A stretch of DNA of 64,000 nt from Candidatus Falkowbacteria bacterium GW2011_GWF2_43_32. GTDB taxonomy: Bacteria > Patescibacteriota > Patescibacteriia > Patescibacteriales > UBA12465. This document shows positions 20,232 to 39,522 of the stretch, piece by piece. The notes beneath the pieces were generated by a model, which worked only from the letters and a program-made list of their open reading frames with translations, did not search any database and was not told the origin of the DNA. Position 1 is the first letter of the stretch, and each line of letters starts with the position of its first letter. The position numbers were made by a program, and so were the translations under genes. Location of the stretch: positions 26,136-90,135 of the forward strand of contig LCGL01000002.1 of assembly GCA_000999715.1 (NCBI GenBank), in the 5' to 3' direction.

Positions 20232-20265
20232 CAAGGGAATTGGCTAATAAAAAATTAAAAATATA

Positions 20266-20293: not shown

Positions 20294-20372
20294 CACGATT
20301 ATTTTATTTAAAAATGTCAAAATTAAAGCGGTTTATAAATTAGAGCGGCTAGAAATGGAAAAATATTTTGAA

Positions 20373-20729: not shown

Positions 20730-21311
20730 ATGTCCATCAATTTGGTGCAAAAATTTAAAGACAAACAAGCTTTGACTAAGCTGAAAAACCGCGATAAAGA
20801 GGCGTTTATTGAGGTTTATGACAATAATGTCAAGGAAATAAACCGTTTCGTTTATTTTAAAATCGGCAAGCGGGAGGAGGCCAATGACCTGACTTCCGTG
20901 ATTTTTTTAAAGGCTTGGAATCACATTCAAAATAAAACCTTGGAAGATGCCAATACTTTACGGTCTTTGCTTTATAAAATCGCTCGGAATTCCATCATTG
21001 ATTACTATCGGGAAACCGGCAATAAGTTGACCGTTTCCATTGATGACGAAGATCATCGGGTTGATGTCGTTGACGAAAAAACGAATTCCCTGGAAATGAT
21101 GGAGCAAAATGATGATATAAAATTGATTAAAAGTCAACTGCCATTTTTAAAAGAAGAGTATCGGGAAATTATTATCATGAGGTTTATCAATGATTTATCT
21201 TTGGAGGAAATCGCGGAAATTAGCGGAAAAACCAAGGGAAATATCAGGGTATTGATTCATCGCGCTCTGAATGCCTTGCGGGAATTGGTGGAAAAAACGC
21301 AAAAATCTTGA
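20730..21311 (+). CDS. RNA polymerase sigma factor, sigma-70 family (ECF-like, regions 2 and 4)
   Basis: Region 2-like FVYFKIGKREEANDLTSVIFLKAW and region 4 HTH YREIIIMRFINDLSLEEIAEISGKTKGNIRVLIHRALNALR. The ATG at 20730 is preferred over the ORF-track start at 20679. An extended -10 TGATAAAAT lies at 20644-20652. Confidence 0.8.
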   Translation: MSINLVQKFKDKQALTKLKNRDKEAFIEVYDNNVKEINRFVYFKIGKREEANDLTSVIFLKAWNHIQNKTLEDANTLRSLLYKIARNSIIDYYRETGNKLTVSIDDEDHRVDVVDEKTNSLEMMEQNDDIKLIKSQLPFLKEEYREIIIMRFINDLSLEEIAEISGKTKGNIRVLIHRALNALRELVEKTQKS

Positions 21312-25700: not shown

Positions 25701-26413
25701 ACCCGACTTCCACGGCTGACTACAACGAAACCATGATCTACAACATTGATGATATTGCGACCGGAGTTGTCGCCACAGGCGTAAACTCCAGCGCCAGCAT
25801 CACTTTAGTTGTCGATCCGGACGCCGATACAGTAGCGACCGGTCAATGGGCCGCGGCTTCCATTACTTCCAACACCGCGACTATTGTCGGTTCTGCTTTG
25901 ACTACCATTACCAACGCTATGAGTGACGCGACTTTGACCGGCGGTACCGCCAAAATCTTAGGCAAATACACGTTTGTCTTTGACAACGGCAGTAACAGAA
26001 ACGCTTCCAATGAAGAATTGAAAGCTTATCTGGATGCTCTCAAGGTAACTGTCAACAAGAGCACGGCGGTGGTTATTACCAATGTTAATGCTCAGATTGA
26101 TGGCACCGCTACCAAGGTAGCCGGCGACATCACCACTTTGGGCAATGGTAATACTTCCGGTTCGGTTGACTGGTTGACGACCGAATTGCAAGGTTTGGCG
26201 GATGGTGGTAAATTAGACGGTACAGTGACTTTGGTCATCACCGGCGATGTTACTACCACTGACGCGACCAGCGAATACGTTCAGACTTCATTGGCTGATG
26301 TCTATGGCGCTGGCGATGTCGATTACATCGGTAACGGTGCGACTGATGGCACGATTTTGACTGCCACCTATCTGCCGGTTGCCGAAGTTATCGGCGGTAC
26401 CTTGTCCGAGTAG
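22739..26413 (+). CDS. large secreted cell-surface protein (S-layer-like)
   Basis: 1224 aa with a Sec signal (MKKLRKFLVSSVMVLTVVAMSGVVVPSVNAAAS). The composition is Cys-free and rich in Thr/Val/Ala/Gly/Asp, with many beta-rich repeats (...VTLT.., ...LKVNLTA..). The N-terminus has tandem ~80-aa modules. Confidence 0.6.
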   Translation: MKKLRKFLVSSVMVLTVVAMSGVVVPSVNAAASAGDLIKMEGNSSVYYLGADAKRYVFPNEATYMSWYSDFSGVVTIPAAELQSYALGGNVTMRPGTKLVKITTDPSVYAVETNGTLRKIQSEAQAAALYGTNWNTKIVDVPDAFFTNYNVGSVLPSGQYSIGSLIKNAGASEIFYYDGTSYRKITNEAAFNANRFNMANVLTASTTVSGTGTEISAVETGLVNVSQGASTPDAVITGSGLMVSLSSMTPAGTGIPAASPMDFLKVNLTAANDGAVNVSAITLTAYDLGTSTFIDEVTFYDNGVKVGTSKNFTSDRVASFSFATPIVVNAGTTKTLTVKATIEASQTGNFAIGIAKAADVTATASAVTGSFPVVSNTMSIVSGATIGTVGLTNAVTTDTTNKFGEDNVLLAEFDLTANNEPVLIQSIKLRNGGTDTTGIVDNLKLFVDGTEVASGTYADKYVTFSLNNYKIAKSDTVQLEVRGDLGVTNNNDTFVLYIKDVNDFGFIGQDYGFGVQLTTAGLANLDTTTEGITVTLTTGQFTIDMDKSATPAKDVKAGDNDVVLATLVMKSNGEDALLEQIVDSGGNDFEINGTGLEADEIENVEMRDVATGAVYDITATRVGSTQWTLSMTDEITLLKGVAKTFQIRADMSDSVAVGGNGGPIDDGDTLYVVLDGAAMTITGETSNASITDITPSSVTSATVTVKDASLTWTPTALSTQTVVGGAQDVVVYQASLKAGTADGIKLSSVTISTDGADTAFTDDDITKLDLYLNGKLLKSVSNSIVETTGGADGYITFNSFSSEADATIAAGATVNLMVKASFASTVTAAGTFDLELESADDATSRAVSSNDSVTETGTISGVSGNITTTAKGTLKVELLVTDVKADEDTHILAGSAVAADRYLAELKFTTENEPIKVTRLRLENSGTSASDDVASVRLVTGSGTIVAEEIPEADGDVLFDPFDYVLAADQTTSLFIAPVVRGLNVLNDPTSTADYNETMIYNIDDIATGVVATGVNSSASITLVVDPDADTVATGQWAAASITSNTATIVGSALTTITNAMSDATLTGGTAKILGKYTFVFDNGSNRNASNEELKAYLDALKVTVNKSTAVVITNVNAQIDGTATKVAGDITTLGNGNTSGSVDWLTTELQGLADGGKLDGTVTLVITGDVTTTDATSEYVQTSLADVYGAGDVDYIGNGATDGTILTATYLPVAEVIGGTLSE

Positions 26414-26427
26414 TTCCAGAAATTCTT

Positions 26428-26460
26428 GAATAGTTTTCCCGATTTCCTTATTCAATAAAT
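26428..26460 (+). repeat. 33-bp direct repeat, copy 1 (GAATAGTTTTCCCGATTTCCTTATTCAATAAAT)
   Basis: 31/33 nt identical to 27308-27340. Together the two copies bracket the NYN gene cassette. Confidence 0.85.
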
Positions 26461-26469
26461 CGGAACAGC

Positions 26470-26520
26470 AAAAGAGCCCTCCGTTATCCGCCAGTTGGCG
26501 GAGGCGGATGGGCTCTTTTC
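26470..26520 (+). terminator. long-stem rho-independent terminator
   Basis: AGAGCCC/TCCG/TCCGCC pairs with GGCGGA/CGGA/GGGCTCT around an AGTT loop, followed by TTTT. Confidence 0.65.
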
Positions 26521-26636
26521 TGTTGGGGGAGGGAGGGGTGGTTTTATCGGGTTCTGGTTATGAGGGACCAATTTCTTTATTTTTTCTTTAGAAAAAATTT
26601 ATCTCGGCTTCATCGGGGTTGTATTATAATAGTTGA

Positions 26637-27188
26637 ATGAAAAATGTAATATATATGTTTATCGACGCATCCAATCTCTGGCAGGCTCAAAAAGCCAAGG
26701 GTAGATTTTTTAATTATAAAAAAATCGTTGAATACGTAAAGGGAAAGTTTCTGACCAAACAGGTCGAAGTCTTTTACTATTCCGCTTATCCCGCCAACGG
26801 AACGCGTCCTTATGATTTAGATGATCGGCATCAATTTTTTACTTTTTTAAAAAAGGGTTTAAAATTCAAGGTTAGAAAAAAGGAATTAAAAAGAATCAGG
26901 GTTGCCGATGAACATGGCAAATATCTCCGAGAAAAGGGAAATATGGATGTAGAAATAACTATTGATGCCATGTATTATTTTGAAAAGTATGATATAGCCG
27001 CTTTATTTACTGGCGATTCTGATTTTTTAGCTTTAGTCGCTCATTTGCGTATGGGTGGCAAGAAAGTGTACATATTTTCTTCAAAGAATAACATTTCCGA
27101 AGAATTGAGGACGGGTGCCGATGCTTATTTTGATATTTTGAAAATAAATGATGATATTTGGGGGCGAGAGTTAAGATATCGGGAATAA
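26637..27188 (+). CDS. NYN domain (LabA/DUF88-like) protein, putative RNase
   Basis: 183 aa with MFIDASNLW...GNMDVEITIDAM...FTGDSDFLALV, the Asp-containing motifs of NYN/LabA proteins. TATAAT at 26625-26630 lies 6 nt before the ATG, suggesting a leaderless mRNA. Confidence 0.75.
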   Translation: MKNVIYMFIDASNLWQAQKAKGRFFNYKKIVEYVKGKFLTKQVEVFYYSAYPANGTRPYDLDDRHQFFTFLKKGLKFKVRKKELKRIRVADEHGKYLREKGNMDVEITIDAMYYFEKYDIAALFTGDSDFLALVAHLRMGGKKVYIFSSKNNISEELRTGADAYFDILKINDDIWGRELRYRE

Positions 27189-27307
27189 AAAAATCACCCT
27201 CCGCCTGGAGGATGACCCTTGGATGTAAAACCCTTCCGGTTAATATAAACCGAAAGACACTATTATTATATATCGTTTTATTTTGATTGTCAATCCGAAT
27301 TTTGTCA

Positions 27308-27340
27308 GAACAGTTTTCCCGATTTCTTTATTCAATAAAT
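27308..27340 (+). repeat. 33-bp direct repeat, copy 2
   Basis: GAACAGTTTTCCCGATTTCTTTATTCAATAAAT; see copy 1. Confidence 0.85.
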
Positions 27341-27357
27341 GGGACAATTTTATTCAT

Positions 27358-27386
27358 TTGACTACATATCATATATGATATATAAT
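27358..27386 (+). promoter_or_regulatory. TA-operon promoter (TTGACT-17-TATAAT) with embedded perfect 16-bp palindrome ATATCATATATGATAT (27366-27381)
   Basis: Near-consensus hexamers with a 17-nt spacer. A palindrome filling the spacer is the classic arrangement of an antitoxin operator. Confidence 0.6.
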
Positions 27387-27398
27387 GAAAAATATAAA

Positions 27399-27746
27399 GT
27401 GAAGTTCTATCGGGATAGTCGAACGGGGAGGAGTCGGGTTTACGATTATATTGAAAGTTTAGACGAAAAATGTAATTCCAAGATTTATAAATATATAAAT
27501 TATTTGGTGGAAAATGGTGGCTATTTAGACGAGCCTTATAGTCGCCATATTCAAGGAAAAATTCGAGAATTAAGAGTCGATTTTTCTAATAATCATTACC
27601 GGATTTTTTATTTCACTTTTATCGGAAAGACCATTATTTTATTACATGCTTTTTTGAAGAAGACAGATAAAACTCCGATTAAAGAAATGAATATGGCTCT
27701 TAGTAATTATAATAAAATCATTAATAATCCTGAACTATATGAATAA
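27399..27746 (+). CDS. type II toxin, RelE/ParE superfamily (HigB / phage Gp49-like)
   Basis: (V)KFYRDSRTGRSRVYDYIESLDEK...IQGKIRELRVDFSNNHYRIFYFTFIGKTIILLHAFLKKTDKTPIKE matches the Gp49/HigB pattern. The GTG at 27399 was chosen because the ATGs at 27339 and 27375 lie upstream of or inside the promoter, so the start is uncertain. Confidence 0.65.
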   Translation: MKFYRDSRTGRSRVYDYIESLDEKCNSKIYKYINYLVENGGYLDEPYSRHIQGKIRELRVDFSNNHYRIFYFTFIGKTIILLHAFLKKTDKTPIKEMNMALSNYNKIINNPELYE

Positions 27747-28038
27747 TAAAAAGGATATAGGAAGAGCTATTGATTTCCATGAGGTTTTGGTTGAAAAATT
27801 AAAAAATCCAAGATTCAAGAAGCTTTACGATAAACATGGTCGTCAGCTGGAATTAGCTTATAGTCTTTTGCAATTGCGCAAAAAAAAGAAAATAAGCCAG
27901 GCTGCTTTAGCCGCTAAAATCGGTACGACGCAGAGCAATATCGCCCGCCTGGAAAGCGGTCGACAGAATTTTACTATTAGCTTTGTCAGTAAAGTGGCCG
28001 AGGCTCTGGGCTCGAGTTTGAAAATCAGTTTTCTTTGA
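27739..28038 (+). CDS. XRE-family HTH antitoxin (HigA-like)
   Basis: 99 aa overlapping the toxin gene by 8 nt. The HTH reads ISQAALAAKIGTTQSNIARLESGRQN. Confidence 0.75.
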   Translation: MNNKKDIGRAIDFHEVLVEKLKNPRFKKLYDKHGRQLELAYSLLQLRKKKKISQAALAAKIGTTQSNIARLESGRQNFTISFVSKVAEALGSSLKISFL

Positions 28039-28047
28039 TAAAGGGGT
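27997..28047 (+). repeat. 51-bp direct repeat, copy 1 (3' end of higA-like gene plus 9 nt)
   Basis: 48/51 nt identical to 35760-35810. Confidence 0.9.
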
Positions 28048-28107
28048 TATGTTATAATATTTTATAGCAGTTGTGATAGTATTTATAAACAAATTAACCG
28101 CACAATT

Positions 28108-31100
28108 ATGTTTAAAATCAACGCTCGTTACTTCAAAAAGCCAATGGTTTCGTTATTGGTTTTTTTATTTATTTTGAGCCCGCTTACTTCGGTTTTTGCC
28201 GAGAATGCTGTTATTTTAGTTGATCAGAATTTAGATATAACCGCTGTCGAAGTTTCCGTTTCGACCGTTAATGAAAAAAATGATGTTATAGCGATTGATG
28301 ATTCTGTAATTAACGAGGAGATAAAAGAATCGGTCGTGGAATTAACAATGGAAGCTGATGATTCGGCGCAGTCTGAATTTTTAACAAGTGAATCGCCTGT
28401 AGATACTAATGTTGTGATTAATCCCAGTACGGCTAAGCAATTATTGCCTAGCTCCGATCAAGTGAGCGGCGCGCTTATTTATGAATATTTAGTTTCTGTG
28501 CCGCCGGGTCGCAATGGACTGCAGCCGGATATTAAATTGACTTATAATAACCAAACCTCAGAAGAGGGCACGGAATTCGGCTTCGGTTGGGACATCAATA
28601 TTCCCTATATCCAAAGAGTGAATAAAAATGGTGTTGAAAAACTATATACTCAAAATTATTTCAATTCTTCTTTGGACGGTGAACTAGTATCCGCTGACAC
28701 AAATACCTGGATGGCTAAGACGGAAAATGGAGATTTTAGAACTTATATTTTTTCTAATAATCAATGGATAATGAAGGATAAAAACGGCACGCAGTATAAA
28801 TTCGGTTATACAGCGATTGCCAGACAAGATGATTCAAGCGATACTTCAAAAGTCTATAAATGGCTTTTAGAGGAAGTCCGGGATACGAACGATAATTATA
28901 TCAAATACGAATATTATAAAAATGCCGGCCAAATATACCCTTATCGGATTACTTATACTGGCAACGGCACGACAGATGGTATATTTCAAATTGAATTTTT
29001 AAAAGAAAGCCGTGATGACGCAATTACCAATAATCGTCCAGGATTCAGTGTAACGACATTTTATCGTATTTACGAGATTGACATAAAAGTCAACGGTAGC
29101 TTAACTCATAGATATGGTCTAGATTATAGCGATAATAATGGTTCTCGCTCTTTGCTGTTTTCAATTACTGAAACTGGCATTGATGATCTCGGGAATTCCG
29201 TTATTTTACCCGATACTACTTTTGAATATCAGGAAGAAACCCCGGGCTGGACTTTTGCCTGGACAACCCCTGTTTATCCGGTAAGTCCTTTTGTGATAGA
29301 TTACGCTAATGATAGAATAGTGGATGTAAATGGTGATGGTTTTCTTGATATGTTATCTACTAGAGACGACACGACCAGAACTTATATAAACAACGGTGAC
29401 AGTTGGGTTTTTAATAATGATTGGGAGGTCCCTAATTTTCGTCCCGATCAGGGGAGAATTAAATTGAGTAGCGGTAATAGTTTTGTAGTTGATATTAATG
29501 GTGATGCTTTAGCTGACATTATTTATGGAGGAGAGTCGATATATATTAATCAGGGATTGGGTTGGGTTTATGACGATTCTTGGGAAATACCGGCACTAAT
29601 GAATGTTATGGATTATAATTTGGATAAGTTAGCCGATGTTAATGGCGACGGATTAATTGATATTGTTTCTACTCGACATGGATATACTAACGATTACACT
29701 ACCTTTTATATTAATAATGGTTCAGGTTGGGATTATGATCAACAACTGGAAACTCCTTTTGTAGAGGGCGTAGGGCATTTTTCGGTAGGAGGGGTTAATG
29801 CTCAACTAGTTGATATTAATGGTGATAGCTTAGTGGATATAGTTTATAATTCTGACATTTTTATCAATCAGGGTCATAGTTGGATTTATGATGATTCTTG
29901 GGAAATACCGGCGCTAATGAATGGCGTATATTATAATCTTGATAGATTTATTGATGTTAATGGTGACGGATTGATTGATATTGTTTCTACTCGACATGGA
30001 TATACTAACGATTATACTAGCTTTTATATTAATAACGGTTCAGGCTGGGATTATGATGATTCTTGGCAAACACCCAGTCAAATAGCTCTAAGCAATAGCT
30101 ATTTTAATGGGTTAGTTGATGTTAATGGCGATGGAATAACTGATTTAATTTATAGTTCTTCCGTTTATGTTAATAACGGAGATAAGGTTGATTTATTAAC
30201 CACTATTAACAACAACAAAGGCGGCTTTACCGACATAATCTATAAAACTACGCCTCAATATCGCTCCGGCTCCACACAGTTGAATCCGAAACTGCCGTTT
30301 GTTTTAGATACTGTTTATCAATTAGTAACTAATGACGGTGCAAACAATATTGTTACTAAAACCTATAGTTACGAAGGTGGCCAATATTATTTTAATACGT
30401 ATATTGATCGTAAGTTTGCCGGATTCAATAAAGTGATAACGACTGATGCGGTCGGCAATACTACTAAATTATTTTTTCATCAAGGAGATGCCTCAGATTC
30501 CTCTCAGGGCGAATATAACGATGATGCTTTTAAGATCGGCAAGATTTATCGCACGGAAGTGGCCGATAGCACCGGTAATATTTACAGTAAAAGTATCAAT
30601 AAATGGGATGACTATGATTTAGGAAATGGTAATAAATTCGTTAAGTTGGCGCAGACCTTGGAGATGACTTATGACGGAAATTCCACCCACAAGGATAAAG
30701 CGGAAACCTATAGTTATGATAACGCCAATGGTAATTTAACTCAAAAAATAGAACTAGGCGAAGTTATTGGCAATAATGACGGTGTTTATACCGATATCGG
30801 CACGGATGATTTTATGACCACGATTTCCTATGTTTCTAATACCGGTGCCAATATTTTAGGCCTGCCTTCGCAACAAACAGTCGTCGATCATAATTTTAAT
30901 AAAGTTAAAGAAACAAAATATTATTATGACGCCCAAGCTTTGGGTGGTGTCATAAAAGGCAATCTGACCAAACAAGAAGACTGGAAATCGGGAACCGCCT
31001 ATGTTAATGCCCGGAAGACCTATGATGGCGTTTATGGCCTGGTAACGATGGCTACTGATCCGAGGGGCAAGACTACGCGCTATATTTATGATTCATATCA

Positions 31101-34014
31101 TCTATATCCGGCGACGATTACAAATGCGTTAAATCAATCAACGCAATACACTTATGACTATTCGTCGGGCAAGGTTAAGCGAATAACCGACCCCAATAGT
31201 CGTATTTTTGAAAATGTTTATGATGGTCTAGATCGTTTGATTATTGAAAAACAGCCTGATATTACCGATCCCGCAACGCTTGTTGCCAAGACTGAATATA
31301 TTTATACCGATACCCCTAATGCCGTAAATATTCATAGAACCGATAATTTGGATTCTTTGATTTCTCGCGAGACGTACCAATATTTTGATGGTTTGAGTCG
31401 TTTGATACAAGAAAGAAGAGAGGCGGAGGGGAGTAATTATCAAATAAAAGATATTATTTATAATAACCGCGATTTAGTAAGTAAAGAATCCTTGGATTAT
31501 TTTTCCGTCGGTTCCGGTAAAACGACTCCGACAACGGCAACGGCGCTTTATAATAATTACACTTATGATCCCTTGTCTAGAATTGTTTCAACCGCGAATG
31601 CGGTCGGTACGACAATCAACGTTTATGACGATTGGAAATTAAGCATTACAGACGTTAATGGTAAAATTAAAGATTTATATCGAGATGCTTATAATAATCT
31701 CGTTCGGGTCGGCGAGCATCATAGCGCCAGTATTTACACTACCATTTATCAGTATAATTATTTAGGAAATCTTGTAAAAATTACCGATGCTTCTAACAAT
31801 ATTCGTAACTTTACCTATGATGGTTTGGGGCGAAGATTGACGGCTCAAGATTTGCATAGTGTTCCGGATGTTACTTTCGGGACATGGGGTTATAGTTATG
31901 ACGATGCCGGCAATTTAATATCATCCACGAATCCCAATGGTCAGACCGTTGCTTACACCTACGATAATCTCAATCGGCGTTTTATGGAGGATTATATCAC
32001 TCAAGTCGGAACGGAAATATATTACATTTATGATTCCGGCGTTGACGGTATCGGTCAATTAACCGGCGTCATCACCGGCGGATTAACGCAAACTAATATA
32101 TATAACCCGTTAGGTTTATTAAAGCATGAAATAAAAACCATCAATTCTACGAGTTATCAAACGGATTATGAATATGATCGTCAGGGAAATCAGACTATCA
32201 TTACCGATCCAAGCGGGTTTAAGGTTAAATATAATTATAATTCTGCCGGTTTATTAAATTCTATACAGAAAAAAGAGGTTAATGATAGCATTTATCTTAA
32301 TGTCATTCATAATTTTAATTATTCTCCGTTAGAACAACCGACGACTATTTATTATGCAAATGGCGCCGTGACCGCGAACACTTATGATGCGACCAAACTT
32401 TATCGGATGAGCAACAAGGTAACGACTGTCGGCGGCGGCTCTTATGCTCAGCGGTTAGCTTATACCTTTGACAATATCGGCAACATTACTCGTATTGTAG
32501 ACAGTTCGGCAAGCAGTACGGCTAAGACCGCTAATTATGTTTATGATGATTTACATCGCCTGACTCAGGCGGCAATAACCAATGTCGCTGTCGGACAGGC
32601 TCCTTATACCGAAAATTATTCCTATAATCCTATTGGTAATATTATATTCAAAACTGGTCAAAATCTTTATGTCTATGCCGGCAATCAGGGAACCAGTTAT
32701 GCCAATCCGCACGCGGTGACCAACATAGATAATATTAACTATACTTACGATCGCAACGGTAATTTAATATTCGATTCGTTTTGGGCATACTCTTGGGATT
32801 ATCGTAATCGTTTAATCCAAGCCACTAAGGGCACAACCACTATCAGATACGGCTATGATCAGAATGATAACCGAATTTGGGTTAATAACGGTTTAACCAT
32901 AACTACTTATCCCACCAAATACTATAATATTACCTCTACCGGGACGACCACAAAGCATATTTTCGCCGGTAGCGAGTTAATGGCCACTATTGAAGGAACG
33001 GGAGCGACTGCCACAAAACATTATATTCACTCCGATCATTTGGGCGGTTCCGGCGTTGTTACCAATTCCGCCAATGCCGTAGAAGAGTTGATTGATTATT
33101 ATCCTTTCGGTGATATTCGTTTTGACCGAAAAATCGGCTCTTTTAACGAACAACGGAAATTTACGGGGCATGAATATGACGTCGAGACAGGACTTAATTA
33201 TATGATGGCGAGATATCAGAATGGAACTATTGGAAGATTTTTGAGTCAGGATCCGGGTACACGAGATAATCCGACGTCGTTTTTGAAGGACCCACAACAA
33301 TTGAATTATTATAGTTATGCGAGAAATAATCCGCTAATCGCTAAAGATCCGAACGGAAAATGGATTCAGTATGTTGTTGGACAAAATAATGCAGTTTCCT
33401 TAGGAAACTGGGCAAACAATCAATATCAAAATAGTTCCGCAGCAAGATTTACTATGGATCATCCATATGTCCCAGCAATAGCTGGCGCAGCTCCTTTGGC
33501 CATATATGGAGTTGGTAGTTTATCTGCAGAAGCGTTAACTCCACTTGTCGGATCAACTTTGGCCAGCAAAGCTTCTCTTGGAGGGACTGCCGGTGCTGCC
33601 GGAGGAATTATATCCCAATTCTTTAATGATATCTCTAAGCAGCAAGTTTCTAGCCCGAACGAGTACGCCGCGAGTGCAGCTAAAGGCGCGATAATTGGAG
33701 CTGGTAGTGAATTTGGCCCTTTCGCGGCCGGGGCCGCTGGGACATTGTCATATATTGCGGAAACCGTTGCTAAGGGCGAATCATTGAACGCTGGAGAGGC
33801 AATATATGAAGGCGGGTTAAGCGCACTGGCAACAACAGCTGTTAAGAATGGAGCTAAAGTCATGGGTATTAATTCAGTCCCAGGCCGATATCCCCAACCT
33901 TTCTCCACTTCGTTTATTACAGGTAGCCATGCGATACAAAATTACGGGAAAGAGGCAGCTTCAAGTGTCTTCCAGGGAGCAATCAATGCTGTAAAAAATA
34001 TGGTTACAAAATAA
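28108..34014 (+). CDS. RHS/YD-repeat polymorphic toxin with Sec signal, SpvB-like N-domain, FG-GAP/VCBS repeats, RHS shell and Gly/Ala-zipper C-terminal toxin tip
   Basis: 1968 aa. A signal peptide (PMVSLLVFLFILSPLTSVFAENA) is followed by an SpvB-type segment (VSVPPGRNGLQPDIKLTYNNQ...FGFGWDINIPYIQR). D(V/I)NGDG repeats and many YD repeats (YxYDxxGNL/RL) follow. The core ends with YYSYARNNPLIAKDPNGKW (D at 33346). The last ~217 aa are Gly/Ala-rich and hydrophobic. An extended -10 TGTTATAAT lies at 28050-28058. Confidence 0.9.
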   Translation: MFKINARYFKKPMVSLLVFLFILSPLTSVFAENAVILVDQNLDITAVEVSVSTVNEKNDVIAIDDSVINEEIKESVVELTMEADDSAQSEFLTSESPVDTNVVINPSTAKQLLPSSDQVSGALIYEYLVSVPPGRNGLQPDIKLTYNNQTSEEGTEFGFGWDINIPYIQRVNKNGVEKLYTQNYFNSSLDGELVSADTNTWMAKTENGDFRTYIFSNNQWIMKDKNGTQYKFGYTAIARQDDSSDTSKVYKWLLEEVRDTNDNYIKYEYYKNAGQIYPYRITYTGNGTTDGIFQIEFLKESRDDAITNNRPGFSVTTFYRIYEIDIKVNGSLTHRYGLDYSDNNGSRSLLFSITETGIDDLGNSVILPDTTFEYQEETPGWTFAWTTPVYPVSPFVIDYANDRIVDVNGDGFLDMLSTRDDTTRTYINNGDSWVFNNDWEVPNFRPDQGRIKLSSGNSFVVDINGDALADIIYGGESIYINQGLGWVYDDSWEIPALMNVMDYNLDKLADVNGDGLIDIVSTRHGYTNDYTTFYINNGSGWDYDQQLETPFVEGVGHFSVGGVNAQLVDINGDSLVDIVYNSDIFINQGHSWIYDDSWEIPALMNGVYYNLDRFIDVNGDGLIDIVSTRHGYTNDYTSFYINNGSGWDYDDSWQTPSQIALSNSYFNGLVDVNGDGITDLIYSSSVYVNNGDKVDLLTTINNNKGGFTDIIYKTTPQYRSGSTQLNPKLPFVLDTVYQLVTNDGANNIVTKTYSYEGGQYYFNTYIDRKFAGFNKVITTDAVGNTTKLFFHQGDASDSSQGEYNDDAFKIGKIYRTEVADSTGNIYSKSINKWDDYDLGNGNKFVKLAQTLEMTYDGNSTHKDKAETYSYDNANGNLTQKIELGEVIGNNDGVYTDIGTDDFMTTISYVSNTGANILGLPSQQTVVDHNFNKVKETKYYYDAQALGGVIKGNLTKQEDWKSGTAYVNARKTYDGVYGLVTMATDPRGKTTRYIYDSYHLYPATITNALNQSTQYTYDYSSGKVKRITDPNSRIFENVYDGLDRLIIEKQPDITDPATLVAKTEYIYTDTPNAVNIHRTDNLDSLISRETYQYFDGLSRLIQERREAEGSNYQIKDIIYNNRDLVSKESLDYFSVGSGKTTPTTATALYNNYTYDPLSRIVSTANAVGTTINVYDDWKLSITDVNGKIKDLYRDAYNNLVRVGEHHSASIYTTIYQYNYLGNLVKITDASNNIRNFTYDGLGRRLTAQDLHSVPDVTFGTWGYSYDDAGNLISSTNPNGQTVAYTYDNLNRRFMEDYITQVGTEIYYIYDSGVDGIGQLTGVITGGLTQTNIYNPLGLLKHEIKTINSTSYQTDYEYDRQGNQTIITDPSGFKVKYNYNSAGLLNSIQKKEVNDSIYLNVIHNFNYSPLEQPTTIYYANGAVTANTYDATKLYRMSNKVTTVGGGSYAQRLAYTFDNIGNITRIVDSSASSTAKTANYVYDDLHRLTQAAITNVAVGQAPYTENYSYNPIGNIIFKTGQNLYVYAGNQGTSYANPHAVTNIDNINYTYDRNGNLIFDSFWAYSWDYRNRLIQATKGTTTIRYGYDQNDNRIWVNNGLTITTYPTKYYNITSTGTTTKHIFAGSELMATIEGTGATATKHYIHSDHLGGSGVVTNSANAVEELIDYYPFGDIRFDRKIGSFNEQRKFTGHEYDVETGLNYMMARYQNGTIGRFLSQDPGTRDNPTSFLKDPQQLNYYSYARNNPLIAKDPNGKWIQYVVGQNNAVSLGNWANNQYQNSSAARFTMDHPYVPAIAGAAPLAIYGVGSLSAEALTPLVGSTLASKASLGGTAGAAGGIISQFFNDISKQQVSSPNEYAASAAKGAIIGAGSEFGPFAAGAAGTLSYIAETVAKGESLNAGEAIYEGGLSALATTAVKNGAKVMGINSVPGRYPQPFSTSFITGSHAIQNYGKEAASSVFQGAINAVKNMVTK
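29545..30180 (+). repeat. 318-bp in-frame tandem duplication inside the RHS gene (FG-GAP/VCBS region)
   Basis: INQGLGWVYDDSWEIPALMN..DVNGDGLIDIVSTRHGYTNDYTTFYINNGSGWDYD (from 29545) is repeated from 29863 with few changes at both the nt and aa level. Confidence 0.8.
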
Positions 34015-34019
34015 AATCT

Positions 34020-34469
34020 ATGACAACCTATCATGTAAATAGAAAAATGTTATTTGCTATTTGGTTCGTGGTTAGTCTTGGAATAATAGGTTTATCTTTA
34101 TTTTCGTATTTTGGTAATTTAAGCGGAGACATCTCTTCTCTTTTTAAAGCAATATTGCTAGGATCAGGTGGCTGGCTAATATTTTCATTATTGATATATA
34201 TTTTTGTGAATATAAAAATTGATAATGACATTTTAGTTTATAAAACCGTATGGACAAAAAAGATAAAGATTAAAGAGATAACTCATATTTGTAGGACATC
34301 ACGTCCGAAACCCTTTGATAAAATGTACGAATCTTTAACTGTGTTTGTTCAAAAAAATGACCAAATAAAAGAATATGAAATTAATTTGAACTATTTCGAT
34401 AAAAAAGATATTGAGGACCTATTAAAAAGGTTGAAAAAATTGAATCATAATATTCATTTTGAAATATAA
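34020..34469 (+). CDS. putative cognate immunity protein (two TM helices plus soluble C-terminal domain)
   Basis: 149 aa starting 5 nt after the RHS stop. It has two hydrophobic helices (LFAIWFVVSLGIIGLSLF, GWLIFSLLIYIFV). The role is assigned by position. Confidence 0.5.
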   Translation: MTTYHVNRKMLFAIWFVVSLGIIGLSLFSYFGNLSGDISSLFKAILLGSGGWLIFSLLIYIFVNIKIDNDILVYKTVWTKKIKIKEITHICRTSRPKPFDKMYESLTVFVQKNDQIKEYEINLNYFDKKDIEDLLKRLKKLNHNIHFEI

Positions 34470-34541
34470 TCATAGCAATAATCCAAGTTGGAAAATAATA
34501 AAAGATAATGTGCAGAAATTTAAAATAGGAGTCTATAAAAC

Positions 34542-34811
34542 ATGGAGAAGTTTTTAGTGTTGGCTGAATTTGGTTGGACTGGGTATTTATATGCTGTTGT
34601 TATAAGACATAATAATTTATTTGATTATACTGTCTTTGGAAATTTGTTAGTATTATTATTTCCATTCATAGGACCATTTATTCGATATTTTCTTTATTAC
34701 GAAGTAGGGGAGGGTAATCTTATTTTTAACTACTTTTTTATAAAAATAGTACTCCCATTAAAAAGCTTGTATTCTTGTCTTATGAACAGCGTCCAGAGAA
34801 ATTCTATTTGA
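34542..34811 (+). CDS. small membrane protein (possible orphan immunity gene)
   Basis: 89 aa and hydrophobic, with AGGAG 10 nt upstream. It lies in the AT-rich immunity array. Confidence 0.4.
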   Translation: MEKFLVLAEFGWTGYLYAVVIRHNNLFDYTVFGNLLVLLFPFIGPFIRYFLYYEVGEGNLIFNYFFIKIVLPLKSLYSCLMNSVQRNSI

Positions 34812-34951
34812 CAATAAATTTAAGATTTTTATAGAGAAGCAAAAAAATCTCCATAAAAAAGCGCCTAGTACTATTTTGGGTTGGGTTTGGTTTACTATTC
34901 GTTGGTGCGGTGTAACTGCGATGTTGAATATTGGTGTGCTTGAATTAATTA

Positions 34952-34960
34952 GGGGGGGGG
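34952..34960 (+). repeat. G9 homopolymer tract
   Basis: Nine consecutive G in an otherwise very AT-rich intergenic stretch, 6 nt upstream of a short ATG-initiated ORF (34967). Confidence 0.9.
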
Positions 34961-35002
34961 ATAGCATGATTGATACACAAATAAAAATAAAACTCTGGGA
35001 CG

Positions 35003-35494
35003 ATGACGATATGTGGTATAATGGAAATGATAAAAAATAATATGAAGAAAATTAAATATAACGAAGGTGATTGGTTTGAAATTAAATTAAAAAGTGGTAA
35101 ATATTTTTTGGGCCGCATTGCTAGAACAAGCAAAAAACCAGGAGAAATTTTAGGATATTTTTTTGGTCCCAGTAAAATCAGCTATACAAATAAGAATTTA
35201 AAGGGGTTTAATGCTTCAAATACCCGTGCAATATATATACATGGGCATTTGAATATAATAAATGGAAAATGGAAATTAATTAAAAATAATGATAACTGGA
35301 AAAGGAATGAGTGGCCAATATCGGTCTTTGTTCGTCATGAAGATTTCACTGAAAGATATTGGAGAGTAGAATATACTGATGATATTTATAGTCCATCATC
35401 TGAAACTAGGATATCTAAAAAAGAAGCTGAAGGATTACAAGATAATTCACTTTATGGAGTAGACGCAGTGGAGGTAGTGCTTGAAAAAATTTAA
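35003..35494 (+). CDS. cytoplasmic protein, possible orphan immunity protein
   Basis: 163-aa ORF with ambiguous start (ATGs at 35003, 35021 and 35042). The sequence KYNEGDWFEIKLKSGKYFLGRIA..ILGYFF is reminiscent of small immunity families in polymorphic-toxin loci. The call is by context only. Confidence 0.4.
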   Translation: MTICGIMEMIKNNMKKIKYNEGDWFEIKLKSGKYFLGRIARTSKKPGEILGYFFGPSKISYTNKNLKGFNASNTRAIYIHGHLNIINGKWKLIKNNDNWKRNEWPISVFVRHEDFTERYWRVEYTDDIYSPSSETRISKKEAEGLQDNSLYGVDAVEVVLEKI

Positions 35495-35531
35495 TTAGCA
35501 TCTTTGATAGATTAAATCTCTTGAATAATCT

Positions 35532-35651
35532 ATGGTGAAAAACAAAATAATTGCTAATAAAAAATTATCAACCTTTTTGGAAGAGTACGATTTTATTAAA
35601 AAAGGAAGCACTTGGTGCTTGAGGAAAAATAGTATGACCCCCGAAATTTAG
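35532..35651 (+). pseudogene. truncated immunity-type gene fragment (39 codons)
   Basis: MVKNKIIANKKLSTFLEEYDFIKKGSTWCLRKNSMTPEI* looks like the N-terminus of small ..L...GFKKKG.tW.r.. proteins (DUF4304-like pattern) cut short by a stop. Confidence 0.35.
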
Positions 35652-35723
35652 ACTCAATATTCGGCATAAAACAAACTAGGCGCAGAAAATTCTAAGTGCG
35701 AAATGTTTGGCGGCAAAATAATT

Positions 35724-35810
35724 CGCCAAATTAATTAAGCTTTGGAATAGAATTGAAGGGCCGAAGCTTTAGGCTCGAGTTTGAAAATCAGTTTTCTTTG
35801 ATAAAGGGGT
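35724..35810 (+). pseudogene. relic of a second HigA-like antitoxin gene (dispersed element copy 2 fused to 51-bp repeat copy 2)
   Basis: 35724-35758 matches 10374-10408 (31/35 nt). 35760-35810 matches 27997-28047 (48/51 nt) and still encodes AEALGSSLKISFL*. Stops and frameshifts lie upstream. Confidence 0.6.
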
Positions 35811-35851
35811 ACTAAAGTGCCTATTTTGTTGATATTTCGCGGTTTTTATTC

Positions 35852-35895
35852 CCTGTAGAGCGTATATTGACACAAACACGCTCTACAGGTAAACT
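35852..35895 (+). promoter_or_regulatory. promoter TTGACA-17-TAAACT enclosed by a perfect 12-bp inverted repeat (CCTGTAGAGCGT / ACGCTCTACAGG); leaderless start
   Basis: Inverted-repeat arms at 35852-35863 and 35878-35889. TTGACA at 35867-35872, TAAACT at 35890-35895, ATG at 35902 (6 nt after the -10). Confidence 0.55.
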
Positions 35896-35901
35896 ATCAA
35901 T

Positions 35902-36873
35902 ATGAAAGCGACATTATCCAATTCAGATTATTTACGCAATTTTGACCGCTTTATTGGTAGTCTGGATTTTTCTGATTCCGATACTCTTCATATTTATTCT
36001 CATCCAAAATGGATCAATGTACATCCGGCTGTTTTAGCTATAGTTGTAGCCATGGCAATGCGGGCAGGTAAGCAGAACGTTACATTTGAAAATCTCACGG
36101 CAACTTCCGGTTCCTATCTTGATCGTATGGGACTTTTTGAATTTACGCATCAAAAGTCACCATATACTATTCATAAGAAAGAAGAATCGGGAAGATTTAT
36201 ACCCGTTACCATTATCAAAAATTCTACCGAACAGTCAAAATTTATTACAGATATGATTCCTCTTCTGCATTTACCTGCCGATAAAACGGATGCTATTAAA
36301 TATACCATCGGGGAACTGCTTCGTAATGTATTGGAACACGCAGGAAGTGCGGCCGGAGCTATTGTTGCGGCTCAATACTATAAAAAATCAAACACAATTC
36401 GTATTGGTATTTGCGATGGCGGCATTGGTATCAGAAAGAGCCTGCAACGCTATTGGGCTACCCGATCAAAGACGGATATAGAAGCAATCAAATGGGCAAT
36501 GGTTCCCGGTATTTCGGGAACGACGCGAAAAGAAGGAGGAACGGAAGACAATGCCGGCGCCGGATTATTTTTTATCAAATCCATTGCGCAAGTAGCCCGT
36601 AATTATTTTATGATTTACAGCGGCTCCGGTATATATAAACTGCTACTTCATGATAAGAGAATAGAAAAACCGCGGCTCCATTCGGATCCGGATGACGATC
36701 GTCATTCTGAACGTAATGACGTCCCTTATTTTCAAGGTACGCTGGTGGCGATAGATCTATCTCTTGAAAATAAATCTGAATTTACTCATCTGCTCTCCGC
36801 TATACGAGAGGTTTACGGCAAAGCGGTTAGAGATCGCAAACGAAAGAAGTACAAAGAACCAAAATTTATATGA
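35902..36873 (+). CDS. GHKL-superfamily ATPase (RsbW/SpoIIAB-like HATPase_c core) with uncharacterised ~130-aa N-terminal domain
   Basis: 323 aa with an N-box (GELLRNVLEH), G1 (CDGGIGI), G2 (DNAGAGLFFIKS) and a G3-like motif (FQGTLVAIDL). No DHp/His-phosphotransfer domain, no TM segment and no receiver domain. Confidence 0.65.
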   Translation: MKATLSNSDYLRNFDRFIGSLDFSDSDTLHIYSHPKWINVHPAVLAIVVAMAMRAGKQNVTFENLTATSGSYLDRMGLFEFTHQKSPYTIHKKEESGRFIPVTIIKNSTEQSKFITDMIPLLHLPADKTDAIKYTIGELLRNVLEHAGSAAGAIVAAQYYKKSNTIRIGICDGGIGIRKSLQRYWATRSKTDIEAIKWAMVPGISGTTRKEGGTEDNAGAGLFFIKSIAQVARNYFMIYSGSGIYKLLLHDKRIEKPRLHSDPDDDRHSERNDVPYFQGTLVAIDLSLENKSEFTHLLSAIREVYGKAVRDRKRKKYKEPKFI

Positions 36874-37184
36874 GTATGATAATTAAAATCAAGAATCTTG
36901 TCGGTGATTTTGCGGAAAATAAAGATGTGGCAAAAAGCTTACGTATCAACAAGATTATGCCGATCTTGGCAGAGAGTAAGGAGCTTGTATTGGATTTTTC
37001 CGGAGTTAGCGGTACGACTCAATCGTTTATTCACGCCTTAATCTCCGAACCGATTCGGCGGTTTCGTGATGTGGCTTTAGAAAAGATACACTACAAAAAT
37101 TGCTCTGATGTTGTAAAAGAAGTTATCAAAACCGTGTCTGAATATATGCAGGAAAGTCTTGATTCGGAAAATTATGAAGAATAA
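36870..37184 (+). CDS. STAS-like protein (DUF4325-type)
   Basis: 104 aa with an ATGA start/stop overlap with the ATPase gene. LVLDFSGVSGTTQSFIHALI matches the LDF.GV....sF..el core I associate with DUF4325/STAS-like domains. Confidence 0.55.
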   Translation: MSMIIKIKNLVGDFAENKDVAKSLRINKIMPILAESKELVLDFSGVSGTTQSFIHALISEPIRRFRDVALEKIHYKNCSDVVKEVIKTVSEYMQESLDSENYEE

Positions 37185-37272
37185 TAATAGCTGTGTAAAA
37201 TATTTAATGTTATAATGATAAAAAATAACGTTTAATGTTGTTGCTATTTTTTAAAGGTAGCCTATAAGATTT

Positions 37273-39522
37273 ATGAACAAAAAAATTTATTTGCGACTTC
37301 TCCAAGGCGGTTTGATCGCCTCGCTTTTTATTGTTTTTGCGGTCTTCAAGCATTTGCTGTTTCCCTATATCACCTCCAAACAATTGCCTTTTAATATTCT
37401 GATGGAAATTTTATTCGTTTTTTGGCTGGTGTTTATTTTGCGCTATCCCGAATATCGGCCGAAGCGTAACTACATCACCACCGGTCTGATCGTGTATTTC
37501 ATGGCGATTTTGGCTTCCTGTGCCGTGAGCGTGGATATCGGTTTGAGCTTTTGGGGCGACGCCGAACGCATGTTGGGCTTTTTTCATCTTCTGCATTTCC
37601 TGATTTTCTATCTGATTCTGATTACGGTTTTTCGGTCTTGGCGCGAATGGCGGGTGTTACTGCTTTTTTCGGTGATGATTGCGACGGCGGTGAGTTTGAT
37701 CGGTTTGCGCGGCGCGAATGTTTATAGCACCATCGGCAATACCACCTATGTCAGCGGTTATCTGATTTTTAATCTTTTTTTCTGTTTAATTTTGTTTCTG
37801 CGGGATAAACGTCAACTCCGGCGCTGGCTTTATTTGGCGCCGGCCCTGGTGATGTTGCGGGAATTTTGGGCCTGTCACACCTCCGGAGCGATTATCGGTT
37901 TATTTTTCAGCGTGTTGTTGTTATTTTTCCTCCTGGGTTTATTTCATAAAAACCGGGCCTTGCGTCGAGTATCTTTGACCGTTTTTATCATTGCCGTCAT
38001 CGGGACGGTGGGCATATTTTCTCAATATCGCGCCGCTTGGTTTCAAAACAGTTTCCTGCGTAATCTTACTTTTCAGAAAGCCACTTTCCAAACCCGGCTG
38101 ATTTCCTGGCAGGGAGCGGCCAAGGATTTTAAGAATCATGTTTTGTTCGGCACCGGCTTTGGCAATTATGCGATTATTTTTGATAAGCATTTTGACTCCG
38201 AATTTTTTGATTATGCCCGAACCGAAACTTATTTTGATCGGGCGCATAATAATTTGGTGGATATTGTTTCCACCACCGGCCTGGTCGGCCTCTTGGCTTA
38301 TTTGAGTATTTTTATCGCCGTTTTATATTATTTGTTTAAAAGATTTCGGCAGAACGGCGGACGAGCCGGTCGGAGCGAAGAGGGGGCACGCCGTAATTTG
38401 GAAATAATCGTGGTCGTCTCTTTGCTGGCCGCTTATTTCATCCAAAATCTGGCGGTGTTTGATTCTTTGGTGACTTATATCGGTTTGATGATGACTCTCG
38501 GCTTTATTTATTATTTGCTGAATGAATCGGCGCCGGGAATCGATCGGGACAAGGAGGAGGACGCCGATGAATCGACGGTATCGCGACCCTTGCTAGATTC
38601 GCAATGGGAATTGTTGGTTTTAGTGATTTTGCTCGCCTTGGCGCTTTTATTGGCCAATCGCTACAACCTCAAGCCTTGGCGGATGTTTAAGGGAACGATT
38701 GTCGCCTATAATCAAGTTTTGCGCGGTGATTTGCCGGGCGGCGTGGCATTATATAAAGAAGTTTTGAGTGACGCGGCCTTGGATCATGACGCTCGCGCTA
38801 CCTTGGTTAATTTCATTTTGGCCAATCCCGGCATTTTGAATACCGTGCCGCGCGAAGAAGCCAATGCTCATCTGGAATACACTATCGGTTTAGCCAAGAC
38901 GAATGTTGCCATGAATCCGCAAGACAGCTTGAAGCAAATGCAGTTGGCGCAAGTATTGGATACGGCCGCTCGCTTTAATTATCAAGATTTGATTAAATTT
39001 AATTATTATTCCCGGCAAGCCTTGGAAGCGATGGATTTGTCCATTGAGTCCAGTCCGGGACGTGCGCCGGTCTATTTGGTTAAAGCGCAGATGCTATTGG
39101 CGCGCGGTGAAAAAGAGGCGGCGATTGAAAATGTGGAGTATGCCATTAGCCTAAATCCGAATTATGCCGAAGGTCATTGTCGCTTGGCGCAATTTTATCT
39201 CTTTTTGGAACAAGAAGCGGAATTCGGCGCGTCTCTGAAACGTTGCGTTGATTTGGACGGTGTTTCATATATCAACTCCGGTTCGCTCTTGTCGGCGGCG
39301 GCCAATTATTTTACCGCGGCCGGAGATTATGAGCGCGCCTTGAAAATGGCGGAACGCTTGGCTTTTCTGTCGCCCGATACCGCGGAAATATGGTTTAATT
39401 TGGCTAAACTTTATTTGATTACCGAGGAACAAACGAAAGCCGATTTCGCGGCCGCGCAGGCGATTCGCCTCAAGGCCGAGTTGAAAACCGAGTGGCTGGA
39501 GCTGGTAAAGGGAATGGAATAA
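37273..39522 (+). CDS. O-antigen ligase-like (Wzy_C) polytopic membrane protein with C-terminal TPR repeats
   Basis: 749 aa with ~10 TM helices. It has FGTGFGNY...FDRAHNNLVDIVSTTGLVGLLAY (Wzy_C signature) and a C-terminal TPR-like region (AISLNPNYAEGHCRLAQFY...). An extended -10 TGTTATAAT lies at 37208-37216. Confidence 0.8.
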   Translation: MNKKIYLRLLQGGLIASLFIVFAVFKHLLFPYITSKQLPFNILMEILFVFWLVFILRYPEYRPKRNYITTGLIVYFMAILASCAVSVDIGLSFWGDAERMLGFFHLLHFLIFYLILITVFRSWREWRVLLLFSVMIATAVSLIGLRGANVYSTIGNTTYVSGYLIFNLFFCLILFLRDKRQLRRWLYLAPALVMLREFWACHTSGAIIGLFFSVLLLFFLLGLFHKNRALRRVSLTVFIIAVIGTVGIFSQYRAAWFQNSFLRNLTFQKATFQTRLISWQGAAKDFKNHVLFGTGFGNYAIIFDKHFDSEFFDYARTETYFDRAHNNLVDIVSTTGLVGLLAYLSIFIAVLYYLFKRFRQNGGRAGRSEEGARRNLEIIVVVSLLAAYFIQNLAVFDSLVTYIGLMMTLGFIYYLLNESAPGIDRDKEEDADESTVSRPLLDSQWELLVLVILLALALLLANRYNLKPWRMFKGTIVAYNQVLRGDLPGGVALYKEVLSDAALDHDARATLVNFILANPGILNTVPREEANAHLEYTIGLAKTNVAMNPQDSLKQMQLAQVLDTAARFNYQDLIKFNYYSRQALEAMDLSIESSPGRAPVYLVKAQMLLARGEKEAAIENVEYAISLNPNYAEGHCRLAQFYLFLEQEAEFGASLKRCVDLDGVSYINSGSLLSAAANYFTAAGDYERALKMAERLAFLSPDTAEIWFNLAKLYLITEEQTKADFAAAQAIRLKAELKTEWLELVKGME

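Follow-up and report, generated by a model that had tools for sequence, protein, structure and literature searches.

How does a bacterial genome come to carry the end of an antitoxin gene twice, with 7.7 kb of toxin and immunity genes between the two copies? The question is raised by a 64,000-nt stretch of Candidatus Falkowbacteria bacterium GW2011_GWF2_43_32 (contig LCGL01000002.1; the whole stretch is called the window, and all coordinates are positions within it), in which a 52-nt direct repeat formed from the 3′ end of a higA-like gene brackets a block with an Rhs polymorphic toxin gene. We think it likely, though some way from certain, that the repeat is the footprint of one insertion with long target duplication, anchored on higA homology. 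The repeat, the operon that it overlaps and the block that it encloses are as follows.

27399–27746, + strand: higB-like toxin gene (Gp49/RelE superfamily; Gp49 PF05973, E 7e-24)
27739–28038, + strand: higA-like antitoxin gene (Xre HTH_3, E 4e-14; 99 aa)
27996–28047, + strand: repeat copy 1 (R52), GAG...CTG version; covers the final 13 codons of the live higA, its stop and the next 9 nt
28048–35758, + strand: inserted block between the repeats (7,711 bp)
28108–34014, + strand: Rhs polymorphic toxin gene (secreted, TcB/TcC-like, 1968 aa; SpvB, FG-GAP, TcdB_toxin_midN and RHS repeats)
34020–34469, + strand: small gene after the toxin (149 aa)
34542–34811, + strand: small gene after the toxin (89 aa)
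35003–35494, + strand: third small gene, an Imm26-family immunity gene
35495–35758, + strand: non-coding, decayed tail of the block (264 nt), ending at the joint with repeat copy 2
35759–35810, + strand: repeat copy 2 (R52′), GAA...TTA version; orphaned 3′ end of higA, with no higA homology upstream

The two copies, read at both sites and also returned by a repeat finder, are identical at 49 of 52 positions and lie 7,763 nt apart. An earlier note on this DNA had described a duplication of 51 bp with 48 matches; the duplication stands, at one base longer. The 39 nt at the 3′ side of both copies (28009–28047 and 35772–35810) are exactly alike, and all three differences (28002, 28006 and 28008; GAG>GAA and CTG>TTA) are confined to the 13 nt that open the repeat (P = 0.013 under random placement). 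As the note had observed, all three are synonymous, with both copies translating to AEALGSSLKISFL*. When up to three mismatches were allowed, the 39-nt core occurred twice in the window, with a match in 0 of 100 shuffles; an exact 27-mer of the core gave no matches in metagenome and GTDB-representative contig collections, which do not hold this organism.

Sensitive blastn and tblastn searches for HigA and HigB upstream of 35759 returned nothing significant (best extra matches E 0.2–0.6), and a stop codon lies two codons 5′ of copy 2. Homology therefore ends abruptly at both repeat borders, and the frameshifted stump that had been placed upstream of copy 2 is not there. On single-strand DNA folding neither copy gave an attC-like fold, only small local hairpins (copy 2, z = −0.3), nor did the repeat contain a hairpin or dyad typical of recombinase sites. 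End-to-end alignment of the block detected no terminal inverted repeats (best score 8.0 versus 8.3 ± 1.2 in shuffles). By Pfam the block contains Rhs and Imm26 only, the sole open reading frame (ORF) of its tail (39 aa, 35532–35651) has no family match, and no integrase or transposase domain was found by Pfam among the scanned ORFs of at least 80 aa in the window, which bears out the earlier view that no integrase is involved locally.

The window sequence is identical to contig DNKM01000008.1 of GCA_003489845.1 (window position 1 is record position 26043) and to an independently assembled ANAN16 groundwater scaffold, and a contig from a second sample (L009) shows the same arrangement at 99.2% identity. 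The left junction is spanned by contig L012 and the right junction by contig L008, both labelled k127 by the assembler. A chimeric assembly joined via the shared 39-nt sequence might be suspected because the source is a metagenome-assembled genome (MAG), because Logan contigs stop at the repeat and because one contig (L011) has a different, low-coverage junction. We regard it as extremely improbable, given that the identical arrangement appears in three assemblies from two samples, that the k127-labelled contigs cross each junction with unique sequence on both sides, and that the Logan breaks match the k=31 expectation exactly. Logan contigs end 30 nt into the 39-nt core and resume 30 nt before the core end, as a k=31 graph must do at such a repeat; these breaks are therefore uninformative on heterogeneity and were dropped as a sign of it.

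Empty sites and higA alleles in relatives

A scan with the N-terminus of the Wzy protein encoded downstream of the island yielded 80 syntenic loci, in which genes for a sigma factor, a DUF5667 protein, a large surface protein and Wzy follow one another in this order. A higA gene occupies the same position in 10 of the 80, always as a single copy, and a single higBA stands there in nine relatives; this makes higBA an old resident of the locus. Neither the Rhs gene with its small genes (Imm26 included), nor the HATPase/DUF4325 pair that follows repeat copy 2, nor the NYN-domain gene that precedes higB was found in any of the 80. In three relatives (L111, L169 and L172) only 78–95 nt separate the higA stop from the Wzy start. 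L172, which lies on the same contig as L016, is 74% identical to the window in higA and 80–87% identical in Wzy at the nucleotide level, and its one higA 3′ end aligns to both repeat copies. Judged from these alignments, all DNA between the higA stop and the Wzy promoter in the window is a later addition. The distance from the host hairpin that begins the variable slot to Wzy ranges from 106 nt (L132 and L108) to 3.5 kb in relatives, and is 10.8 kb in the window. Other cargo follows higA in some relatives, either a 179-aa gene or genes for beta-helix proteins of 710–737 aa. The comparison that the earlier note had proposed thus returned higA next to Wzy in distant relatives and alternative cargo in others, and did not return an isogenic empty site.

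The sequences expected at the two possible recombination products, each visible only to reads longer than 52 nt, are as follows.

Predicted empty-site junction: GTCAGTAAAGT + repeat + ACTAAAGTGCC
Predicted excised-circle junction: GAATTGAAG + repeat + TATGTTATAAT

Contig L011 (ERZ6005329 NODE_3544, 1.9x coverage) was considered as an empty site, with higA followed by HATPase, and was rejected. The first 76 nt of its Rhs gene are joined to about codon 27 of the HATPase gene, a 7.8-kb deletion relative to the window (28184 to ~35978) that takes out the Rhs block and repeat copy 2. The deletion ends are not at the repeat borders, so that the repeats were not used, and the contig departs from the window sequence after 37557, inside Wzy. 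The contig represents a genuine deletion variant or else a chimera.

The two repeat copies can be compared with higA alleles in close relatives. L011 and L012, from two other samples, match the window at 99.2% identity across NYN and higBA, and their intact higA ends GCC GAA GCT TTA GGT, which are the GAA and TTA states of copy 2. Relative to the window they have four differences within 10 nt (28002–28011) and seven in the remaining ~1,070 nt (0.65%); on this distribution the four clustered differences read as a recombination patch, not as scattered point mutation. The GAG/CTG states of the window are also present in the higA of L009 and L010, and the more distant L016 has GAG/TTG/GGT. Since GAA and TTA are found in the live higA of sister strains, the copy 2 states are those of an allele of the same gene, and no paralogue is needed. 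The clustering of the differences, together with the existence of both haplotypes in live genes, points to copies that were different at birth, and favours recombination over duplication by a staggered cut.

These observations run counter to the note's proposals that copy 2 derives from a paralogous second antitoxin gene and that it diverged under purifying selection before truncation: higA is single in all 10 syntenic relatives, searches upstream of copy 2 gave no trace of higB or higA, and the supposedly divergent states are present in intact genes (L011 and L012). The synonymous nature of the differences does not alter this, since changes in the live copy would likewise be expected to be synonymous only. 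We pooled six repeat pairs that overlap coding sequence and counted 21 synonymous and 19 non-synonymous differences, a synonymous excess against random (p = 2e-4) that is compatible with a constrained live copy and a drifting orphan (p = 0.18). Synonymous bias as proof of a once-functional orphan was accordingly set aside, the pooled test separating none of the models.

Proposed routes of insertion and alternatives

On the reading that we favour, the higBA operon would long have been resident just upstream of the Wzy gene in this Patescibacteria lineage. A 7.7-kb foreign, low-GC block (the Rhs toxin, three small genes including Imm26, and the decayed tail) would have recombined at the homology of the higA 3′ end, bringing its own copy of the last ~50 nt of higA, and the live higA would have stayed intact because the incoming DNA carried that end. 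The other copy, of 13 codons plus 9 nt, would have been left 7.7 kb downstream as a functionless orphan beside the separately acquired HATPase/DUF4325 cassette. The two copies would differ because they represent donor and recipient higA alleles, and not because one is a decayed paralogue. Two routes could lead to this structure. A circularised fragment may have entered by a single crossover with ~52 bp of higA; or, after a one-sided homologous invasion, the other end may have been joined illegitimately at GGCCGA, a GC-rich microhomology that makes up the first six bases of the repeat and lies 42 nt before the resident stop. An integrase or transposase would be unnecessary in either route. Insertion via homologous recombination at the antitoxin 3′ end was one of two routes offered in the earlier note, and we grade it the most likely; for the other, deletion between tandem toxin–antitoxin cassettes, no evidence was found. 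We infer the recombination route, the circular intermediate, the donor copy, the enzymes and entry of the DNA by natural transformation. Such uptake is plausible, given the natural competence of Saccharibacteria (PMC10633639).

To place the repeat in a wider setting, self-searches for direct repeats were made at 80 loci in other Patescibacteria MAGs that were collected by a HigA alignment scan. In nine of these (L031, L034, L042, L058, L068, L069, L073, L088 and L089) higBA is bracketed by direct repeats of 34–122 nt with 88–97% identity, enclosing 553–865 nt. The duplicated host DNA includes gene 3′ ends in L034 (AMMECR1) and L042 (SPFH) and a terminator in L068 and L073, and in L031 a whole small zinc-ribbon gene is present twice around higBA. 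Elsewhere a 56-nt copy of the 3′ end of a class II aminoacyl-tRNA synthetase gene brackets higBA and further DNA in a 2.8-kb insert (L087), an NYN cassette beside higA is flanked by two copies of 105 nt from the 5′ end of a RarA-like AAA ATPase gene (L086), and L059 has another repeat-bracketed NYN cassette. Of the sequence windows taken at the higA stop, 13 of 80 had a second copy in the locus, as did 8 of 67 taken upstream of higB; for random windows the figure was 22 of 720. When whole gene units were compared, 6 of 62 higBA units were bracketed versus 13 of 955 other units (odds ratio 7.8, p = 6e-4). The 13 bracketed control units are mostly mobile or conflict genes (NYN, RhuM-Fic, IS200 transposase, GIY-YIG and GNAT), and the signature therefore tracks such genes generally. 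At 17 other loci the bracket repeats, 22–122 nt long, are unrelated in sequence and share no recombination core.

At L067 16436–17080, L050 8302–9677 and L038 1946–2941, direct repeats of 32–109 nt bracket a tandem pair of GIY-YIG nuclease genes, an IS200-type Y1 transposase gene and a gene for a RhuM-Fic protein. In L055 (1398–4994) the motif A(A/T)ACAGGTTCTAAC stands seven times after successive small ORFs, and the same locus has a tandemly duplicated higBA with a 1,222-nt period. The motif recurs in L094 (10304–13497), from a different Patescibacteria class, and may mark a site of recombination in cassette arrays. The window lacks the motif, and the motif forms no strong hairpin.

These data bear on several other origins for the 52-bp repeat. 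It could be the attL and attR of a non-autonomous element resembling a cis-mobilizable element (CIME), moved by a tyrosine or serine recombinase in trans and with an att site on the element that restores higA. The target at a gene 3′ end and the reconstituted gene would suit such an element, an identical 39-nt core with one diverged arm is the classic att pattern, and such repeats can arise by site-specific recombination (Furuta et al., PMC2853133). However, there is no integrase in the 64-kb window, the core 27-mer is absent from both collections scanned, the repeat has no recombinase-site hairpin or dyad, and the comparable brackets at the 17 other Patescibacteria loci have no common core; we consider this origin unlikely. 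We hold an equally low opinion of the note's idea that a second, paralogous higBA cassette once separated the Rhs block from HATPase and was deleted except for its last 52 nt, leaving copy 2 as its scar. It agrees with the purely synonymous differences and with the 9 nt past the stop, which a cassette end would include, and copy 2 would indeed be a remnant of the resident cassette if the live higBA were wholly donor-derived; even so, this would amount to a one-step replacement by an orthologue and would involve neither a paralogue nor a later deletion. Against a second cassette are the lack of higB or higA similarity upstream of 35759, the one copy in every relative with higA at the locus, the match of the variant states to an allele of the same gene in sister strains, and the need for two events (tandem acquisition and a deletion ending inside higA) where one suffices. 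Moreover, the ends of single-copy housekeeping genes are duplicated around cassettes elsewhere, so the signature needs no paralogous cassettes.

A transposase- or casposase-like enzyme acting in trans might also make staggered cuts ~52 nt apart, with gap repair then giving a target-site duplication. IS1634 and IS1549 generate long, variable target duplications. Duplications of this kind are known for a few transposases (cited in PMC2853133), and the signature recurs at arbitrary target sequences. This origin is nevertheless very unlikely: the block has neither terminal inverted repeats nor conserved ends, repeat lengths range over 22–122 nt, and the copies were probably different at birth, since both haplotypes exist as live alleles and three differences cluster in 13 nt while the adjacent NYN, higBA and Rhs-upstream DNA is 99–100% identical (L010 versus window). 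A more general idea is a sequence-independent cassette insertion in Patescibacteria with the enzyme encoded elsewhere, directed into arbitrary positions beside gene ends and leaving 20–120-bp target duplications as a by-product. We give it little credence; if it were true, a dedicated process would move promoter-to-stop conflict cassettes (higBA, NYN and Rhs blocks), and the 52-bp repeat would be one instance. An integron cassette was rejected for want of an attC-like fold, an IntI and, in the window, the AGGTTCTAAC motif of L055 and L094. A single imported segment explaining both this repeat and a second pair nearby (L37, below) needs an unobserved donor arrangement and was not adopted.

Single insertion by homology at higA remains our preferred explanation, and several points weigh against it. 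A stretch of 52 bp is short for a RecA-dependent crossover. An isogenic empty site (higA, a single repeat, then HATPase) was not found among the loci compared; in the relatives that are empty, HigA is only 65–77% identical and the HATPase cassette is absent as well. No higA 3′ repeat surrounds the other cargo at the same slot (L109, L110, L123, L104 and L107), making the duplication specific to the Rhs event, and the neighbouring L37 pair brackets no clean indel relative to relatives. The allele distribution leaves donor and resident copies ambiguous, because L010 and L016 favour GAG as the older state and L011 and L012 carry GAA/TTA. The 21:19 synonymous excess fits two functional alleles and a constrained live copy with a drifting orphan alike. 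A search for the donor via Rhs homologues identified none; the best outside the lineage is 52% identical, with uninformative contexts, and this approach was abandoned.

The low-GC island and its other units

The repeat-bracketed block belongs to a larger island of low GC (~26.5–37.3 kb, GC 0.26–0.41) within a core chromosomal region of GC 0.44–0.53 that encodes DnaE, ParAB, FtsW, RF-1, BipA and GreA. Its remaining features and its flanking genes are listed here.

22739–26413, + strand: 1224-aa host gene; conserved, borders the variable slot on the left
26428–26464, + strand: L37 copy 1, the native hairpin in the 3′ untranslated region of the 1224-aa gene, with a GC-rich terminator after it
26637–27188, + strand: NYN-domain gene
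27308–27344, + strand: L37′ copy 2, 34/37 identical to copy 1, abutting the higBA promoter
35902–36873, + strand: HATPase_c_2 gene, in a separate cassette with DUF4325 (35811–37200)
36870–37184, + strand: DUF4325 gene, second gene of the HATPase cassette
37273–39522, + strand: Wzy_C/TPR host gene; conserved, borders the variable slot on the right

Besides the repeat-bracketed block, the island holds at least three further units (NYN, higBA and HATPase/DUF4325), so the repeat marks just one of the island-building events. The earlier note had taken the repeats as the boundaries of the island; they are the borders of the Rhs/immunity block, and the island as a whole extends past them. An Rfam scan of the island gave nothing relevant.

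Within the block, the C-terminal ~170 aa of the Rhs protein match no Pfam or NCBIfam toxin family, and the last ~500 nt of the gene (33500–34014) have a GC of 0.48, compared with ~0.38 upstream and 0.26 in the next gene. The GC jump and the unmatched C-terminus fit a swapped, unclassified toxin tip.

The higB and higA genes overlap by 8 nt. The mechanical ORF of higB starts at 27339; a TTGACT-17-TATAAT promoter at 27358–27386 makes the GTG at 27399 the likely start. The promoter palindrome ATATCATATATGATAT is conserved across relatives. With the toxin gene first, RelE/ParE-superfamily and HTH domains, the overlap and the palindrome, the operon has the features by which a type II toxin–antitoxin higBA is recognised from sequence. 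In L009, from a population 99.2% identical, higA has a 31-nt deletion (~window 27925–27965) that shifts the frame and leaves 83 aa, with higB apparently intact. In the more distant L104, L107 and L151, higB is cut to its last ~9 codons and higA stands alone.

The L37 pair (37 nt) is a real duplication and brackets an 843-bp unit comprising a terminator, a promoter-like region, the NYN gene and a candidate small RNA. It was rejected as a clean second case: the copy 1 hairpin (TTCCCGATT...AATCGG) is present in 17 relatives, immediately past the stop codon of the 1224-like gene, with compensatory changes (CTGATT/AATCAG) in L122 and L110, and since copy 1, the terminator and the promoter-like region are all native in relatives, the pair does not bracket the NYN indel cleanly. 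A microhomology joint is suggested by the first 10 nt of L37′ (GAACAGTTTT), where the copy overlaps sequence native to L121.

On the minus strand, 27293..27265 forms a perfect sigma-70 promoter (TTGACA-17-TATAAT) in a region conserved in L121. It is followed by a ~75-nt two-hairpin unit ending in a T-run (within 27185–27293; −30.8 kcal/mol, z = −5.4), a candidate small RNA convergent with the NYN gene for which Rfam gave no match. In place of the NYN gene (window 26576–27300), L121 has at 9266–9727 an unrelated 153-aa ORF without a Pfam match, and the DNA 5′ (the promoter region) and 3′ of this ORF is homologous to the flanks of NYN in the window. The arrangement suggests that one gene has replaced another in a conserved expression slot.

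Comparison of L010 with window 26005–29096 showed that the 3′ part of the 1224-aa gene is only 54–90% identical, rising towards the stop, and that from the stop onward NYN, higBA, the repeat and the DNA upstream of Rhs are 99–100% identical. The pattern reflects either a hypervariable surface-protein gene or exchange of the island between lineages.

On the far side of the block, the HATPase/DUF4325 pair has 2,227 homologues, with 75–92% identity across phyla, including the candidate phyla radiation (CPR), Nanoarchaeota and Proteobacteria. From this distribution the pair (DUF4325 being STAS-like) appears as a separately mobile, widely transferred module, and in L013–L015 it lies inside type I restriction–modification (R-M) operons, between hsdM/S and hsdR. 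In the window the cassette has a hairpin-promoter at 35849–35895, with the −35 box in the loop of a conserved 15-bp hairpin. Upstream conservation with the R-M operon copies begins at ~35826, so that only ~15 nt separate the HATPase module from repeat copy 2. The HATPase protein weakly matches the N-terminal region of PADLOC DrmA (E = 3e-13).

Far upstream of the island, at 20202–20325, two tandem 62-nt units that are 71% identical, each with an inverted repeat (TTTAAGTCTA...TAGACTTAAA), lie upstream of a gene for an extracytoplasmic function (ECF)-type sigma factor (20679–21311).

Related systems and significance

The closest likeness is to the insertion with long target duplication described for R-M systems, in which an insert of less than 20 kb without mobility genes is flanked by repeats of more than 30 bp that correspond to one copy in the empty genome, by an unknown mechanism (PMC2853133). 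In the Haemophilus influenzae example the repeats are 46 bp long and overlap 15 bp of a gene 3′ end, and the class is found mostly in competent species (PMC2853133). The present locus shares with these systems (Nobusato et al. 2000; Furuta et al. 2010) the small insert, the absence of mobility genes, the repeat of more than 30 bp, the overlap with a gene 3′ end, slightly imperfect copies and a selfish or conflict cargo. It differs in that the cargo is an Rhs toxin with immunity genes (higBA or NYN at related loci), that the host is a Patescibacteria MAG, and that the empty sites come from distant relatives, not from the same species. Set against the definition of Furuta et al., the insert is missing in relatives in which both flanks align (L111, L169 and L172, which are distant and also lack the HATPase cassette), it is shorter than 20 kb and has no mobility gene, and a repeat of more than 30 bp is present at both ends against a single copy at the empty site. 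The locus failed the tests for an integrase element, a DNA transposon, an integron cassette and a classical Rhs orphan locus. It is thus a case that conforms to long target duplication, with a new type of cargo, a new host and distant empty sites.

Effector–immunity modules provide a second parallel. Their acquisition has been proposed to proceed by recombination at a homologous anchor with an illegitimate joint (homology-facilitated illegitimate recombination, HFIR), by which the old 3′ end is ‘shifted back’ (PMC5361080). The orphan 3′ fragments of Rhs, contact-dependent inhibition (CDI) and type VI secretion system (T6SS) loci have the same topology as our locus, that is a live end, a new module and a displaced homologous 3′ fragment (Koskiniemi 2014, PMC3967940; Kirchberger 2017, PMC5361080); here, in contrast, the anchor is the neighbouring antitoxin gene higA and not the rhs core, and the shared stretch is only 52 nt. 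Downstream of 34014 in the window, the repeat finder detected neither a repeat of the rhs core nor an orphan rhs tip, whereas L098 displays the classical Rhs orphan pattern, with downstream fragments repeating the end of the rhs core.

In Escherichia coli conjugation, circular DNA with one-sided homology gave duplications of 109–950 bp and was far commoner than true HFIR (PMC3240628). Such Campbell-type integration (Amarir-Bouhram et al. 2011, PMC3240628) likewise leaves foreign DNA flanked by a homologous duplication without a site-specific recombinase; those duplications of 109–950 bp are experimental, while here the homology is 52 nt and a circular intermediate is hypothetical. CIMEs, too, are islands flanked by direct repeats at a gene 3′ end with no recombinase inside, but for the locus studied here no cognate integrase or element is known, and no att core is common to the other repeat-bracketed cassettes.

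If the favoured reading is right, the antitoxin ‘ghost’ is a dated, readable record of how a toxin island was added to a minimal genome without mobile-element machinery, and it corrects the idea of a lost second toxin–antitoxin cassette. To our knowledge, the long target duplication of R-M systems has never been explained mechanistically. Gene flow in Patescibacteria is thought to rely on DNA uptake. The occurrence of the signature around toxin–antitoxin, NYN and Rhs cassettes extends it beyond the R-M systems of competent bacteria, and Patescibacteria therefore provide many natural replicates, and now a transformable model, for studying gene capture by one-sided homology. Lying between direct repeats, the block is also liable to be lost or amplified through recombination, which bears on strain-level variation in competitive weaponry.

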